A DNA stretch of 64,000 nucleotides from an uncultured Chloroflexia bacterium (GTDB lineage: Bacteria > Chloroflexota > Limnocylindria > Limnocylindrales > CSP1-4). The stretch spans positions 32,477 through 96,476 of the forward strand of contig CAVQPG010000003.1 in assembly GCA_963714675.1 (NCBI GenBank), read 5' to 3'. A program made the translations under genes and the position numbers. Below, one piece after another: positions 143 to 5,874 of the stretch (its first letter is position 1; each line of letters opens with the position of its first letter). The notes beneath the pieces are model-generated. The model was not told where the DNA came from. It did no database searches and saw only the letters and a list, made by a program, of their open reading frames with translations.

Positions 143-1966
143 TCACGGCCCGATGATGAGTCGCACCTGACCGGAGATGGCGAAGCGCACCGGACCGTGG
201 CTACGCTCCGGCAACCCGTCGATGTTGACCGTCAGCGGCCGACGCGAGCCACGGGCGTGGGTCGGCGTCCGCACGACCATCACGCGGACGTCACGGACCA
301 CCGAGTCGTAGCGGGCAGGCGCGTCGAAGATGGCACCGCTGCGTGCCGCGGCCAGCTGGCGCAACGCTGCCGGCAAGCCACGGTCGCGCAGCGCCACGAC
401 CCGGAAGTCACCGCTCGCGAAGGACACGCCACGCCCGAGGGGGAAGTCAGGTCCCAGGTCAGCCCCCACGACGATGACCGCGATCCAGCGATCCGGACCG
501 ACGGCCTCGCCATCCAACTCGAGGACCAGCGGCGCGACGTGGCCCCAGAGACGAAGCCAGGACCACTGAGCCGTGGCGAGGGCGAGTCCGACGTAGAACG
601 GCCCGTAGTCACCCGCGATGGACCCGATGATGCCCTTGTAGAACTTGACCCAACGGGCCTCGGTGAAGCGCGGGACGTCGCCGAAGATGCCCAGGCCGCC
701 GAATCCGATCAGGTGGCGAGTCCTGGCCTCACCGTGTGGACCGACCGTGTCCACCGCGATGACATCGGCCCGCAGGCGGCGATCGTGCTCGATGCCGTCG
801 ACGATGGCTGAGACGGCAGCCGGCAACTCGTCGGAGATGCGCAGCGTCTTGCCGATGAGATCGGCCGATCCCTTGCGCAGGAAGGCCAGCCGCACCTCCG
901 ATGGGATGGTCCCGGCTTGGTGGGAACCTTCGAGCACGGCGTTGAAGGTGCCGCCCCCGCCGGCGGAGACGATGACTCGCCCTCCCCTCGCGACGATGTC
1001 ATTCGTCGTGGCCTCCGCCTCGGCATGGCTGTCGACGGCATGGAGGCGCACGGGCTGTCGCGTGACGGCCGCGAACTGCGGGACGATGCGATGGATCTTG
1101 CGCTGATCCGCGAGCGAGCCCGAGATGGTGGTGGCGACGACCTCGATCGGTGCCGCCTCAGGATCTCCGACCCTGAGGTCCGGGCGTGCCTCGATGGCGT
1201 CGAGCACAGCCTCGGTCACAAGCGCGGCTACCTCCTCCTGCCCGGTCCGCGTCGCCGCGACACGCACCACACGAACGCCGTGGCATGACTCGATGAGCCC
1301 GCAGATGCGTTCGTAGCCCGCCGCCAGGTCATCGAGAGCAGGCACCGTCTCATGGGCCTGCCGAACCTGGCCTCTGCGACCGATCCGTTCCATCGCCGAG
1401 GTCCCGTCGATCTGGAGCAACACCACCAGGTCCGGCATGGCGAAGCGCAGCCCGACACGGTTGACGGCGGCCAGCTGCCACGCATGCCGAAGGTAGAAGC
1501 GCAGCTCCGAGCGCGGGATCCGCGCCTGACCGGAGAGATACCTCAGGGCATCGAGGACACGCTCGTCGTCTCTACCGAGCTGGTCTCGGTAGAGACGGGC
1601 CGCCGACCATGCCATCGTGTTCAGCAGCGGATCGCCGTCGGTCAGGAGCACGTCTGGACGCTCATCGCGGACGACCTGCTCACGGGTGCGCGAGCGCCCG
1701 ATGAGGTCGAGCGTCTTGAGCTGGCGGTAGGCCCAGACGTGCCTCGTCGCCTTGGCCGAACGCAGGACGGCTCGCGACAGGCGCCGGAGTGGCACGTCTC
1801 TTCGAACGTGGACCGGCACCCCCGGCGCACCGGCCAGGCACTCGTCCCCGATGCCCACCACGTCCACGCTCAAGGCCAGCTGTTCGAGTGCACCGCGGCA
1901 GGCCGACGACTTGCCACTCCCGTCGATACCGACCACCGCTGCGACGTACGTCTCCCTGCCGGTCAT
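143..1966 (-). CDS. Fusion of a thymidylate-kinase-like P-loop domain and a diacylglycerol-kinase-family domain with degenerate motifs
   Basis: N-terminal VVGIDGSGKS Walker A, PDLVVLL and AMERIGRRG..HET lid (TMPK-like). C-terminal VSAGGGGTFNAV, FLRKGSADL, GFGGLG and VNIDGL (DAGK-like). Confidence 0.7.
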   Translation of the reverse strand: MTGRETYVAAVVGIDGSGKSSACRGALEQLALSVDVVGIGDECLAGAPGVPVHVRRDVPLRRLSRAVLRSAKATRHVWAYRQLKTLDLIGRSRTREQVVRDERPDVLLTDGDPLLNTMAWSAARLYRDQLGRDDERVLDALRYLSGQARIPRSELRFYLRHAWQLAAVNRVGLRFAMPDLVVLLQIDGTSAMERIGRRGQVRQAHETVPALDDLAAGYERICGLIESCHGVRVVRVAATRTGQEEVAALVTEAVLDAIEARPDLRVGDPEAAPIEVVATTISGSLADQRKIHRIVPQFAAVTRQPVRLHAVDSHAEAEATTNDIVARGGRVIVSAGGGGTFNAVLEGSHQAGTIPSEVRLAFLRKGSADLIGKTLRISDELPAAVSAIVDGIEHDRRLRADVIAVDTVGPHGEARTRHLIGFGGLGIFGDVPRFTEARWVKFYKGIIGSIAGDYGPFYVGLALATAQWSWLRLWGHVAPLVLELDGEAVGPDRWIAVIVVGADLGPDFPLGRGVSFASGDFRVVALRDRGLPAALRQLAAARSGAIFDAPARYDSVVRDVRVMVVRTPTHARGSRRPLTVNIDGLPERSHGPVRFAISGQVRLIIGP

Positions 1967-2138
1967 GACGATCGTCGTGGCACCCCCGATGCGTTCCGAC
2001 GCGTGGCTTCGGGGTCCATGATGGACGCCCGCTCCACCTCGTCAAGAGCACTTCGGCTTCCTCTGCAGGATGCCTGTCCTATGGCACTTGGCAGGTGTCG
2101 GAGCGAGCACGGACGATGGTGGGGCTTGGAGGCATGAC

Positions 2139-4736
2139 ATGCCCGATCTCGTGACGGTCAGCGGGCCACCACTCGAGGCTCGCGTCAAGGACCTCAGCGG
2201 CGAAACGCTCACCGAGCTTCTCGGGCGAGCGGTCGCGCGCACCCCCGACAGCATCGCACTGGTCATCCGCCGAGACATGCTCGACGAGCGCTGGAGCTAC
2301 CGGCGACTGGCGGAGGTCGCCGAACGCGTGGCGACGAAGCTGCAGGCCGAAGGCATCGACCACGGCGACCGCGTGCTGACGTGGTCGCAGAACGACCCCT
2401 GGCTGGTGGCCGCCTACTTCGCCGTCTGGCGCCTGGGCGCCGTCATCGTGCCACTCGACCCGCGCATGCAAACGGACGTGGCCATCCGTATCGGACGCCA
2501 GGCCCGGGCGTCGATGTTGCTCGCCGGCCGCGATGTCGACCCTGAAGCGGCCGCCGCGCTGGAGCTGCCCATCCTCGATGTCGATGAGGCAGACCTATGC
2601 CCTTCGCGAACGCACAGCGAAGTCGTGGCCGCGTTCCCGTCGGTCTCGCCTGACGACCTGGCCGAAGTCATCTTCACCAGCGGAACCACATCCGACCCCA
2701 AGGGCGTGATGCTGACGCACGGTCAGATCGTGCATACGGCGCGAGCCATCGCTCAGACAGCGATGGGGTCGCATCCCGATCGGGCCCTCGCCGTCATCCC
2801 GCTCTCACACATGTACGGGCAGACGGTGCCGCTGCTGATGGGCCTCATGAGCGGCTCCACGCTCGTGTTCCTGCATGCGCTCACCCCCAAAGCCATGAGC
2901 GTCACCATGCAGCGTGAGCACATCACCGCCCTGACGCTCGTCCCGCACCTGATGAGCATCTTGCTGGAGGGCATCGAGAACGAGGCCAGGCGCACTGGTC
3001 GCGAGGCGCGTCTGGCGCGTCTTCGCAGGGTCGGCCGCTGGTTGCCTCTCCGGCTGCGGCGCCTGCTCTTCCGCTCCGTGCTGACTCGGTTGGGTGGTGC
3101 CCTGGAGGTCATCGGCAGTGGCGGAGCGGCACTCGACGAGGAACTGCAGCGAGCCTGGGAGTGCTTCGGGCTACGCGTCACGCAGGGCTACGGCACGACC
3201 GAGGTCGCGGCCATCTGCGGTCACTCCCGCACACGGCAACGCCACGGCACGGTCGGTCCACCGCTCGCGGGCATCGAGGTACGGATCGCCGAGGACGGTG
3301 AGCTGCTCGCCCGCGGCCCCAGCGTCATGCACGGCTACTGGGAGGCTCCAGAGGCCACGGCCGAGGTGCTCGACGAGGACGGCTGGTTCCACACTGGTGA
3401 CGCCGCTCGCGTCGACGAACACGGGGAGCTGGTGATCCTGGGTCGCACGCGCGACCGTATCGCGTTGCCCAGCGGTCTGAACGTGTACCCCGAAGACGTC
3501 GAAGGCGCGCTGGTGGCGACCGGGTCCGTGCGTGCCGCTGTCGTCTTCGAGTCCTCGCCCGGCAAGCTCGCGGCCGTCCTGGTCCCAGCCGCCGGTGCCA
3601 GCGACGAGGACCTCGGGCCCGCAGTGAAGTCGGCCAACGCGACGCTCACCCCACACCAACGGGTCGGTGCGTGGCGTCGCTGGCCCCAGGAGGACTTCCC
3701 GCGCACACACACGTCGAAGCTCCGTCGAGCCCCGGTGCAGGCCTGGTTCGCGGGTACGGACGTCGCCGGAACGCCCGGCTCGGCGGTCTCGTCGGGGCGA
3801 CCGGTCACGACCGCGGCAGCCGCCGTCACGGAGCTGGCGGTCGCGAAGGCGGTCGCAGATACCCTGGTCGAGGCCCGGGGCGTGGTTCCGCCGACGCTCA
3901 CCGGCGGGACGACGCTCGAGTCGCTCGACCTCGACTCGCTGACCGTCGTGTCGCTGACCTTGCGGATCGAATCAACCTTCGACGCGCCACTGTCCGATGA
4001 CGACGTGCTCGGCGCTCCCGACATCGCGGCGCTTCACGCCCTCGTGCTGGAGCGACAGGGCAAGCGACCCGCGCCACCACCATCGGATTGGGCCTTCTCC
4101 GGACCGGCACGCGGGCTGCGTCGGATGCTCGACGTCACGCTCGTCGGCTGGGCCGTCGGCATCGTCAGCGACCTCCGGGTCGAGGGTCTCGAGCAGCTCC
4201 TGGCCCTCTCCGGACCGGCGCTCATCTGCCCCAACCACACCAGCCACCTCGACGCGCCCGTCGTGCGCGCTGCCCTGCCACCGGCCATGCGCGATCACAG
4301 TGCCATCGCTGCCGCGGCGGATGTCTGGTTCCGCAGAGGCATCGTGGGTCCCGTGGCTGAGCTCGCCCTGGGCGCGATCGCGTTCGGGCGCACGTCAGAC
4401 GTCCGTGCGTCGCTCGAGCGGGTGGCGAATCTGGTGAACGACGGCTACACGGTCATCATCTTCCCGGAGGGGACGCGTTCGGCGGACGGGCGACTGGGGC
4501 CGATGCGTCAAGGCATCGGACTGCTGGCCACGCAGCTGCACGTGCCCATCGTTCCGGTGCACATCGATGGTGCCCATGACATCCTGCCCAAGGGCGCCTC
4601 GCTTCCGAGCCACCGTGAGCGAGCGCATGTCGTCGTCCGCTTCGGCGAGCCGATGCGGCTGGAGCCCGGGACCACGGTCCTCGAGGCCACCGCCCAGGTA
4701 CGCCGAGCCATCTTGGCACTCGCGCCGGCGAGCTGA
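2139..4736 (+). CDS. Long-chain acyl-CoA/ACP ligase + acyl carrier domain + PlsC-type acyltransferase fusion
   Basis: FTSGTTSDPKG, QGYGTTE and GWFHTGD (AMP-binding); LDLDSL (phosphopantetheine Ser); NHTSHLD and FPEGTRS (LPLAT). GGAGG RBS 6 nt before ATG 2139. Confidence 0.88.
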   Translation: MPDLVTVSGPPLEARVKDLSGETLTELLGRAVARTPDSIALVIRRDMLDERWSYRRLAEVAERVATKLQAEGIDHGDRVLTWSQNDPWLVAAYFAVWRLGAVIVPLDPRMQTDVAIRIGRQARASMLLAGRDVDPEAAAALELPILDVDEADLCPSRTHSEVVAAFPSVSPDDLAEVIFTSGTTSDPKGVMLTHGQIVHTARAIAQTAMGSHPDRALAVIPLSHMYGQTVPLLMGLMSGSTLVFLHALTPKAMSVTMQREHITALTLVPHLMSILLEGIENEARRTGREARLARLRRVGRWLPLRLRRLLFRSVLTRLGGALEVIGSGGAALDEELQRAWECFGLRVTQGYGTTEVAAICGHSRTRQRHGTVGPPLAGIEVRIAEDGELLARGPSVMHGYWEAPEATAEVLDEDGWFHTGDAARVDEHGELVILGRTRDRIALPSGLNVYPEDVEGALVATGSVRAAVVFESSPGKLAAVLVPAAGASDEDLGPAVKSANATLTPHQRVGAWRRWPQEDFPRTHTSKLRRAPVQAWFAGTDVAGTPGSAVSSGRPVTTAAAAVTELAVAKAVADTLVEARGVVPPTLTGGTTLESLDLDSLTVVSLTLRIESTFDAPLSDDDVLGAPDIAALHALVLERQGKRPAPPPSDWAFSGPARGLRRMLDVTLVGWAVGIVSDLRVEGLEQLLALSGPALICPNHTSHLDAPVVRAALPPAMRDHSAIAAAADVWFRRGIVGPVAELALGAIAFGRTSDVRASLERVANLVNDGYTVIIFPEGTRSADGRLGPMRQGIGLLATQLHVPIVPVHIDGAHDILPKGASLPSHRERAHVVVRFGEPMRLEPGTTVLEATAQVRRAILALAPAS

Positions 4737-4830
4737 GTCGACCTCGGCTTGAAGGCCACCCGTGGGACTTCGTCCACTCGGCCCGCGAGCCGCGGTCCAC
4801 GACAGGCCCAAGACACCTACCATGCACGCC

Positions 4831-5874
4831 ATGCCCCCCTTCGAGCTTGGTCTGTACACCTTCGGCGATATCACCCCTGAGCTGGGCGGTAGCATCACGC
4901 CCCAACAGCGGCTCCGCGACGTGGTCGACGAGGCGCGCCTGGCCGATGAGGTCGGGCTCGACGTCTTCGCGGTCGGCGAGCACCACCGCGCCGACTTCCC
5001 CATCTCCGTGCCCGCCGTGGTGCTCGCCGCGATCGCCGAGCGGACCAGGCACATCCGCCTGTCGAGCTCCGTGAACGTGCTCTCGTCGGATGATCCGGTG
5101 CGCGTCTTCCAGCAGTTCGCGACGCTCGATCTCCTGTCCGACGGTCGTGCCGAGATCATGGCTGGTCGCGGCTCGTTCACCGAGTCGTTCCCGCTCTTCG
5201 GCTACGACCTCCGCGATTACGACAGCCTCTTCGCCGAGAAGCTGGAGATGCTGCTCGCCCTACGGGCCTCGGAGCGCATCACCTGGTCCGGCCAGCACCG
5301 CGCGCCGATCGACGACCGCGGCGTGTACCCACGCCCGATCCAGGATCCCCTCCCGGTATGGGTCGCCATCGGCGGGACGCCAGAGTCGGCCGTCCGTGCG
5401 GGTGTCTTGGGCCTGCCCTTGGCCCTCGCTATCATCGGTGGTCAGCCCGCACGCTTCGCGCCCTTCGCCGAGCTGCACCGTCGCGCCGCGGCGGAGGCAG
5501 GCCATACTCGACTGCCGTTCAGCATCAACTCCCACGGGTTCCTCGCTGACGACTCGCAGGAGGCGTCGGATGCCGCCTGGCCTGCGGCGCAGCTGCTGAT
5601 GAACCGCATCGGCAAGGAGCGCGGGTTCACGCCGGTCACCCGAGAGGCGTACGAGGCCGGCCACGAGCTCCACGGTCACACCTTCACCGGCAGCCCGGCC
5701 CAGGTCATCGAGAAGATCCTGTACCAGTACGAGATCTTTGGGCACGACCGGTTCCTGCTGCAGTTCATCGTCGGCTCGCTGGAGCACGCCAAGGTCATGC
5801 GCGCCATCGAGCTCTTTGGGACGGAGGTCGCCCCCGTGGTCCGCGCGGAGATCGGCAAGCGCACGGCAGCTTGA
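4831..5874 (+). CDS. LLM-class flavin-dependent oxidoreductase (luciferase-like)
   Basis: [26 protein letters not shown] and [19 protein letters not shown] -10 box 7 nt upstream supports a leaderless start at 4831. Confidence 0.9.

Follow-up and report, generated by a model that had tools for sequence, protein, structure and literature searches.

The window analyzed here is a 64,000-nucleotide stretch of DNA from an uncultured Chloroflexia bacterium, and near its start lies a gene for a 607-amino-acid protein, P0001, that joins two kinase folds. One half, KIN, is a P-loop domain of the thymidylate kinase (TMPK) fold, and the other, DGK*, has the diacylglycerol (DAG)/sphingosine kinase fold but lacks the aspartate of the GGDG motif. 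A second gene, transcribed divergently, encodes P0002, an 865-amino-acid acyl ligase-acyl carrier protein (ACP)-PlsC acyltransferase. We found near-obligate co-occurrence of KIN and DGK* in two clades that are about 22% alike, and we conclude that the system is real, conserved, built from known folds and apparently uncharacterized. The reading that we favor, tentatively and with slightly less than even confidence, is that KIN and DGK* form a two-part kinase making glycerol 3-phosphate (G3P)-type or lysophosphatidic acid (lyso-PA) acceptors, with KIN as the catalyst and DGK* binding lipid. The fusion gene has the following features:

143 to 1966, minus strand: KIN-DGK* fusion gene P0001 (607 amino acids), from the open reading frame, Pfam and an AlphaFold model
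1184 to 1954, minus strand: KIN, P-loop domain of the TMPK/deoxynucleoside kinase fold, residues 5-261, with β-hairpin and basic amphipathic helical inserts
1907 to 1930, minus strand: Walker A motif GIDGSGKS, residues 13-20 (G13-S20), from the alignment
1634 to 1639, minus strand: D110-G111 at the end of core strand 3, the probable DR site of dTMP kinases as judged from strand order
1349 to 1360, minus strand: QxHE lid motif (Q203, H205, E206), which both clades keep in the form QxHE or DxHE
146 to 1156, minus strand: DGK*, DAG/sphingosine kinase fold, residues 271-607, from the structural match
947 to 961, minus strand: GGGGT, residues 336-340, with the GGDG aspartate missing, from the alignment
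857 to 877, minus strand: RKGSADL, residues 364-370 (GSADL is 366-370), from the alignment
212 to 220, minus strand: DGL, residues 583-585, with the aspartate retained and the glutamate gone, from the alignment

The relatives of P0001 (clade 1) comprised 200 proteins out of 7,995 candidates, and the 120 of these that were listed, query included, were aligned. The GGDG aspartate was present in none of the 120 (alanine in 97, glycine in 22, threonine in 1) and in none of the 80 locus segments, of 84, that have a residue at this position, which is often serine in loci of other phyla. The glutamate three residues past GT, corresponding to SK1 Glu86 and to GGDGTLNE of DgkB, is also lost (alanine in 119, serine in 1; n = 120). 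At the DGE site, the register of which was taken from the DgkB alignment, the aspartate is kept in 119 of 120 and the glutamate position is leucine in 93, glycine in 25, histidine in 1 and a gap in 1 (n = 120). DGK* has no equivalents of D81, E86 and E343 of SK1. Little or no variation is seen in the motifs TTxSGS, SAGGxGT, RKGSA[DN]L, GDxGPF and NxD or at D583, E436, D453 and R438, and R364 and K365 are found in all 120, where canonical enzymes have a proline and a variable residue. GGDGT was kept in 9 of the 9 ordinary DAGK-family controls read. Some of these controls also lack the DGE glutamate, and its loss is therefore the weaker feature.

Conservation over the 120 aligned proteins and the loci rules out sequencing error as the source of the motif changes, and the altered GGDGT and DGE motifs described in a first-pass annotation of this DNA are real and conserved, with invariant loops around them. 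The same annotation counted the change from GTxND to GSADL among the altered hallmark motifs of an apparently dead DAG kinase. We ruled this sign out as not diagnostic because human AGK, which has GETSS at the site, is enzymatically active (PMC2171605). In SK1, alanine mutants of the ATP site have abolished or much reduced activity and D341A/E343A abolished activity (PMC4466670), and 10.1101/2023.05.01.538943 describes GGDG as the motif that binds ATP, conserved in CpgB despite the divergence of that enzyme. That DGK* is a dead enzyme is likely but unproven, because the loops of its nucleotide site do not vary and acidic residues persist at the DGE site in the sister clade described below. By the features tested, DGK* is outside the active soluble DAG/sphingosine kinases, despite its fold.

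Pfam placed DAGK_cat at residues 281-394 of P0001 (E = 3.7e-8, above its cut-off) and Thymidylate_kin at residues 173-214 (E = 5.7e-5, below its cut-off), and KIN scored 27.4 bits on DTMP_kinase (TIGR00041) against a cut-off of 83.25. An AlphaFold model of full-length P0001 made from a 92-sequence alignment had a pLDDT of 87.6 and a pTM of 0.64, and KIN modeled alone had a pLDDT of 94.5 and a pTM of 0.91. In the full-length model, residues 5-261 matched TMPK (Z 19.5, rmsd 2.6, 188 aligned) and residues 269-607 matched both SphK1 (Z 26.9, rmsd 3.3, 299 aligned) and DgkB (Z 25.7, rmsd 2.9, 279 aligned). When KIN alone was compared with 48,161 chains, the best matches were TMPKs (Z 18.2, rmsd 3.4, 190 aligned), deoxynucleoside kinases came next (Z 16.5), and cytidylate kinase reached Z 11.5. 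No transmembrane helix was predicted in either domain.

The P-loop lysine of KIN, K19, is present in all 116 rows that have a residue there (of 120), and KIN also retains D110, the lid arginines R194 and R198, D/E41 (114 of 120) and QxHE. D110 is followed by glycine in 118 of 120 and there is no DR arginine; DR is invariant in 6 of 6 TMPK-like controls. The DR register in KIN rests on strand order in the AlphaFold model; two sequence aligners place DR further downstream, and no arginine is conserved there either. R91 aligns with R78 of E. coli Tmk, the position of the base-binding arginine of TMPKs, and residues 60-74 form a basic amphipathic helix (mean moment 0.50, net charge +3.4; n = 45). 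By the features tested, KIN is outside the dTMP kinases: the TMPK fold and Walker A motif are there, but DR and a TIGR00041 score over the cut-off are not. On the modeled register, loss of the DR arginine counts against KIN as a catalyst, at least where the acceptor is a nucleotide. Elsewhere in the superfamily, kinases that act on hydroxyl groups function without this arginine. Given its loss in KIN, catalysis may lie in one of the two domains, in both or in none. With the DR arginine gone, the earlier proposal that the P-loop domain carries out phosphoryl transfer can be put forward only conditionally.

For clade 1, GTDB genomes gave 105 confirmed loci, of which the best 80 were used. DGK* is accompanied by KIN in 78 of the 80; the two are one chain in 38, and KIN is joined to PlsC in 28. 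The two exceptions are L038, at a contig edge, and L045, where CdsA-like and PlsC-KIN genes stand on the contig of DGK* but about 10 kb upstream of it. A PlsC domain is encoded no more than 5 kb away in 55 of the 80 loci, as ligase-ACP-PlsC in 27 and fused to KIN in 28. Among the 39 loci flanked by at least 3 kb on each side it is present in 33; in four further loci the ligase is truncated by the contig end. Six well-flanked loci have no PlsC (L001, L045, L012, L015, L017 and L029), and for L001 a full-length ligase-ACP-PlsC orthologue (68%) was found on another contig. Several of the bins without PlsC are Anaerolineae, and thus this lineage may do without it. In a FastTree tree of PlsC, from which 7 near-duplicate, cut or frameshifted rows were omitted, the ligase-ACP and KIN-fused types occupy separate parts and form two lineages. 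Carriers are uncultured Chloroflexota, Actinomycetota, candidate phyla radiation (CPR) bacteria and one Nanoarchaeota bin, along with Amphritea sp. HPY (L061), the complete genome of which has the three-gene form. The closest named relatives of KIN-DGK*, 68-75% identical, are Chloroflexota bins. Of 36 genomes of the host genus, 4 have DGK* and these 4 alone have KIN; an ACP-PlsC orthologue occurs in 7 of 36, including all 4 KIN-DGK* genomes, 3 of those on other contigs; these genomes are kin and the counts are not independent.

None of three outcomes that would speak against the first-pass annotation was seen: retention of GGDGT in relatives, absence of the fusion elsewhere, or absence of linkage to the acyltransferase. 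Its idea of a lipid module is strengthened by the wide distribution of the fusion, by the PlsC linkage and by the direct fusion of KIN to PlsC. Gene orientation varies between loci, and the divergent arrangement with ligase-ACP-PlsC is not conserved. Nor is the module a fixed two-gene unit, since it is found split, re-fused and, in a sister form, with other partners.

This sister clade, reached through distant matches, consists of KIN2 (20 proteins) and DGK2 (346 proteins), which align over their full lengths with KIN and DGK* at 23% and 22% identity (probability 99.9 and 99.4). DGK2 has GGGG[TS] in 116 of 120 and GGNGT in 3 of 120, has DED at the DGE site and keeps the N in GSGN. In 79 of 80 KIN2 sequences the motif reads SDGN or nearly so and contains no arginine. 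The sister loci (L119-L198, L201, L226-L233) were the best 80 of 267 confirmed metagenome loci and fall into 67 clusters at 95% and 10 at 65%. DGK2 is directly 5' of KIN2 in 68 of the 80 (67 of 68 among those with enough upstream DNA), and KIN2 is fused to a methyltransferase-like (YnbC-like) domain in 73. This domain is a remote YnbC homologue (probability 93.8), and no solved relative was found for it at E < 0.39. PlsC occurs in 1 of the 80 loci. A G3P-oxidase/dehydrogenase-like gene lies 3' in 38 of 80, or 32 of the 48 with enough DNA; its products score under family cut-offs, and R317, R332 and K354 of E. coli GlpD, presumably phosphate-binding residues, are kept in the 5 aligned. Among 121 genomes of one order, DGK2 and KIN2 are in the same 16 and adjacent in 15. 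The minimal sister system, in 9 of 9 genomes read, is DGK2 and KIN2-methyltransferase alone. An unrooted tree put both clades lacking the aspartate on one side (support 97); with no root, only 9 controls and a warning of long branches, this tree does not show a single origin.

A third altered enzyme accompanies one branch of clade 1. A YnbB-like CdsA homologue starts 26 of the 28 PlsC-KIN loci, the other two being cut. SPxKT and HGG are missing from all 26, as are the KD and DR..S motifs that 12 comparison sequences keep. We take the lost motifs to be the catalytic cytidylyltransferase motifs, and this homologue is, from its sequence, likely a pseudo-enzyme. Its best scores are to YnbB-like proteins (E 1e-51 to 1e-29, vs 5e-7 for E. 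coli CdsA). The clade of 26 (L042, L049, L061, L067 and others; the CdsA tree was a quick version) keeps the membrane scaffold. The KIN-fused PlsC groups, with support 99, with PlsC of operons like E. coli ynbABCD (CDP-alcohol transferase, CdsA paralogue YnbB, PlsC and hydrolase/methyltransferase YnbC), and ynb operon context was present in 3 of 3 records read around the grouped PlsC. Unlike the module here, the ynb-like operons read have no kinase pair, and intact YnbB-type CdsA, CDP-alcohol transferase and YnbC all stand with the module in 1 of 80 loci (L041), where ligase-ACP-PlsC, CDP-alcohol transferase, CdsA, KIN-DGK* and methyltransferase genes lie in a row. Intact CdsA with CDP-alcohol transferase is found in 4 loci; the cdsA of L037, 7 kb off, was excluded as housekeeping. 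In the Nanoarchaeota bin (L044, bin assignment as given), KIN and DGK* share a 3.2-kb contig with genes for an intact CdsA and a CDP-alcohol transferase.

The invariant unit is the kinase pair, and its varying partners acylate, activate or oxidize G3P-type molecules: PlsC in 55 of 80 loci, PlsY once (L048), CdsA with CDP-alcohol transferase in 4 loci and the G3P-oxidase-like gene in 38 of 80 sister loci. The pair may therefore make such a molecule. We propose that it would work as one non-canonical kinase on a glycerol-backbone alcohol, most likely monoacyl- or alkylglycerol. KIN would bind ATP at its intact P-loop and phosphorylate a hydroxyl, with D41, H205 and E206 replacing the missing arginine clamp. 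DGK* would be non-catalytic, binding lipid or anionic product at the membrane and either presenting it to KIN or gating KIN. The ligase would charge its own ACP with a fatty acid, and PlsC would acylate the lyso-PA or G3P-type product, which in some genomes CdsA and CDP-alcohol transferase could take on to a phospholipid and which in the sister clade the G3P-oxidase-like enzyme could oxidize. The net role would be salvage or remodeling of partly hydrolyzed glycerolipids. A fuller and more speculative version, which we consider possible but rather doubtful, is that a TMPK-clan protein has turned into a membrane lipid-alcohol kinase with a DAGK fold lacking the aspartate as its lipid-binding subunit. 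It would be an ancient two-component enzyme with at least two deep clades and a hitherto unknown route to G3P-type or lyso-PA intermediates, one branch being anchored to the membrane by a dead CdsA.

Several observations weigh against the two-part kinase. The predicted acceptor pocket of KIN has basic residues (R91, K72, K84), and a negatively charged ligand would suit it no less than an uncharged alcohol. The active sites are separate and the models give no confident arrangement of the two domains (pTM 0.64 at full length vs 0.91 for KIN alone), which makes lipid hand-over between them a conjecture. With the query used, no full-length ligase-ACP-PlsC was found elsewhere for L012, L015, L017, L029, L030 and L046, in bins that are incomplete, and the G3P-oxidase-like gene was adjacent in 0 of 9 genomes read from the sister clade. 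Plain glycerol is a poor candidate acceptor because a canonical glycerol kinase, GlpK, is encoded by the host. Finally, KIN has no DRX arginine, a residue that according to PMC12995831 is essential in dTMP kinases and the replacement of which explains the inactivity of rPPK3. That precedent, an arginine-less TMPK fold serving as an inactive regulatory subunit, also feeds a different reading, in which both domains are pseudo-enzymes and, with the motif-less CdsA, make up a sensor or scaffold that binds ATP and phosphatidic acid (PA)/G3P-type ligands and regulates the acyltransferase or, in the sister clade, the methyltransferase. Three degenerate partners (DGK* with no aspartate in 120, KIN with no DR arginine and CdsA motif-less in 26 of 26) and the bare sister system are consistent with it. 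However, the catalytic columns of CdsA vary freely, whereas KIN and DGK* keep invariant residues at both of their sites across phyla, which fits catalysis or tight binding, and no DNA-binding or signaling output domain recurs among the 40 largest neighbor clusters. We consider a sensor doubtful.

It is also unlikely, in our estimate, that DGK* is itself the catalyst through altered chemistry, in which arginine/lysine and second-lobe carboxylates replace aspartate/glutamate and KIN acts as an activator or performs a second phosphorylation step. A lipid-kinase fold (Z 26.9 to SphK1) suits a lipid acceptor, TTxSGS, GGxGT, RKGSA, D583, E436, D453 and R438 are all but fixed, DGK2 keeps acidic residues at the DGE site and the N of GSGN, and AGK is active (PMC2171605) without the ND motif. 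Set against these are the 9 of 9 ordinary controls that retain GGDGT, the requirement in SK1 for the very residues lost (PMC4466670) and the persistence of GGDG as the ATP-binding motif in CpgB (10.1101/2023.05.01.538943). A nucleotide kinase acting on dTMP, CMP or a nucleoside, which would recycle the CMP of CDP-lipid synthesis or regenerate nucleotides and so explain the lipid neighbors, would accord with the structural matches of KIN to TMPKs and deoxynucleoside kinases, with the alignment of R91 to Tmk R78 and with the 4 loci that have intact CdsA and CDP-alcohol transferase. We judge it improbable: the DR arginine is gone, the DTMP_kinase score is 27 bits vs a cut-off of 83, the cytidylate kinase match is only Z 11.5, a separate Tmk over its cut-off is present in 4 of 5 carriers searched, and little CMP would arise because 26 loci have a CdsA without the motifs and most of the remaining loci have no CdsA. 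A pair that replaces housekeeping glycerol kinase or Tmk was rejected because the host has both, although 3 of 5 genomes searched have no GlpK over its cut-off. The canonical tmk of the host (L108/L111, G000:C18:15014-15617) is in two frames, probably through an assembly frameshift. All other readings taken together are very improbable.

The second gene of the window and its upstream region have these features:

1967 to 2138, no strand: divergent intergenic region of 172 bp, the distance between gene starts
2139 to 4736, plus strand: acyl ligase-ACP-PlsC gene P0002 (865 amino acids), with Pfam domains AMP-binding, PP-binding and Acyltransferase
2226 to 3341, plus strand: AMP-binding domain with TSGTTxxPK and GYGxTE motifs intact
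3852 to 4037, plus strand: carrier domain, with predicted phosphopantetheine Ser600 in LDSL (codon 3936-3938)
4173 to 4565, plus strand: PlsC-type acyltransferase with NHxSxxD and FPEGTR intact

All that the first-pass annotation reported of the two genes was there, from the 607-amino-acid fusion with GIDGSGKS, GGGGT, GSADL and DGL to the ligase-ACP-PlsC gene 172 bp away. The 172-bp gap presumes the ATG at 2139, which has GGAGG just 5' of it, as the start of P0002; the ATG at 2070 is an alternative in the open frame. DS[LV] is present in the linker of P0002-type proteins in 27 of 27 loci and the window, and NHxSxxD in 54 of 56 PlsC segments, with the 2 misses cut by contig ends. P0002 matches PRK08633 under its cut-off.

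The module belongs to a known kind, gene cassettes dedicated to lipids, of which ynb, Aas and Cpg are examples. Like P0002, Aas (2-acyl-glycerophosphoethanolamine acyltransferase/acyl-ACP synthetase) has an acyl ligase and a PlsC-type domain in one chain, but P0002 has the opposite domain order and carries an ACP of its own. No kinase takes part when Aas puts acyl chains back on lysolipids. In Caulobacter, the dedicated CPG pathway begins with the ceramide kinase CpgB, like DGK* a member of the DAGK family, and includes genes for head-group transfer. CpgB, however, keeps GGDG and is active alone, and the parts of 10.1101/2023.05.01.538943 and PMC12275187 available to us mention no P-loop partner or acyltransferase. 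More broadly, DGK* shares with the soluble DAG-kinase family (S. aureus DgkB, YegS, SphK1, AGK; PF00781) a two-lobed fold over about 300 residues (Z 21-27), glycine-rich nucleotide loops and the retained D583 and D401, but differs in lacking the GGDG aspartate and the GGDGTxxE and DGE glutamates, in its new invariant R364/K365 and in having a TMPK-fold partner. KIN covers 188 of the 194 residues of Aquifex Tmk and has the Walker A motif and lid arginines of the thymidylate kinase clan, but it has DG for DR, IGD for TREP, a QxHE lid, about 60 inserted residues and lipid genes as its context. LpxK is likewise a P-loop kinase acting at the membrane interface; it was absent among the 50 structural matches listed for KIN, an absence that does not exclude kinship. 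The substrate of LpxK is lipid A. The archaeal PPK3 catalytic/regulatory pair resembles KIN in that rPPK3 is also without the DRX arginine (PMC12995831), but no second TMPK-fold or polyphosphate gene was found among the 40 largest neighbor clusters of the 80 loci. Tandem TMPK-like genes elsewhere (L110/L114, G073:C2:1136414-1137777) look like the PPK3 pair of PMC12995831.

No paper on the KIN-DGK* pair turned up in the literature, in which no search combined both kinase names, and we provisionally consider the pair undescribed. If the two-part kinase is correct, it would be an unrecognized entry into bacterial phospholipid salvage in the carrier lineages, and the nucleotide-kinase clan would gain a lipid substrate. 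If both domains are dead, a pseudo-enzyme assembly of DAGK, TMPK and CdsA folds around an acyltransferase would also be unusual. Either way, hundreds of proteins labeled 'diacylglycerol kinase' or 'thymidylate kinase' would be misnamed.

Searches of a more general kind gave little. PADLOC anti-phage models had no match in P0001 or P0002 and partial kinase-type matches in two relatives (7 proteins scanned), atlas searches returned only hypothetical or generic names for matching clusters, no carriage was found in viral_contigs, and among plasmid records none reached 80% coverage of PlsC-KIN. On contig C2 of G000 (L081:5586-8562), the host carries a separate operon with a YnbB-like CdsA, a CDP-alcohol transferase, a Methyltransf_20 protein and a short-chain dehydrogenase. 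As a candidate for the rest of the pathway it was weakened, the ynb-type methyltransferase being in 4 of 36 genomes of the genus and in 0 of the 4 with KIN-DGK*. A second long-chain acyl ligase of the host, on contig C4 of G000 (L082:5548-7656), is 39.5% identical over 506 columns, and its open frame has no carrier or PlsC match. In the window, a luciferase-like monooxygenase (4819-5874) lies 3' of the ligase gene; it does not recur among the 40 largest neighbor clusters. Between DGK* and PlsC-KIN of L045 (L045:4516-8774) are an apparent peptide-modification gene and a putative ABC transporter. In two CPR genomes, the pair is divergent from PlsY at L048:7196-7801 and from an ACPS-family gene and ligase-ACP-PlsC at L047:3095-3484. 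A ceramidase-family gene (PF05875, scored for L061) lies 3' in 3 of 80 loci (L061:12880-13632, L062:3826-4659 and L066:5682-6626).

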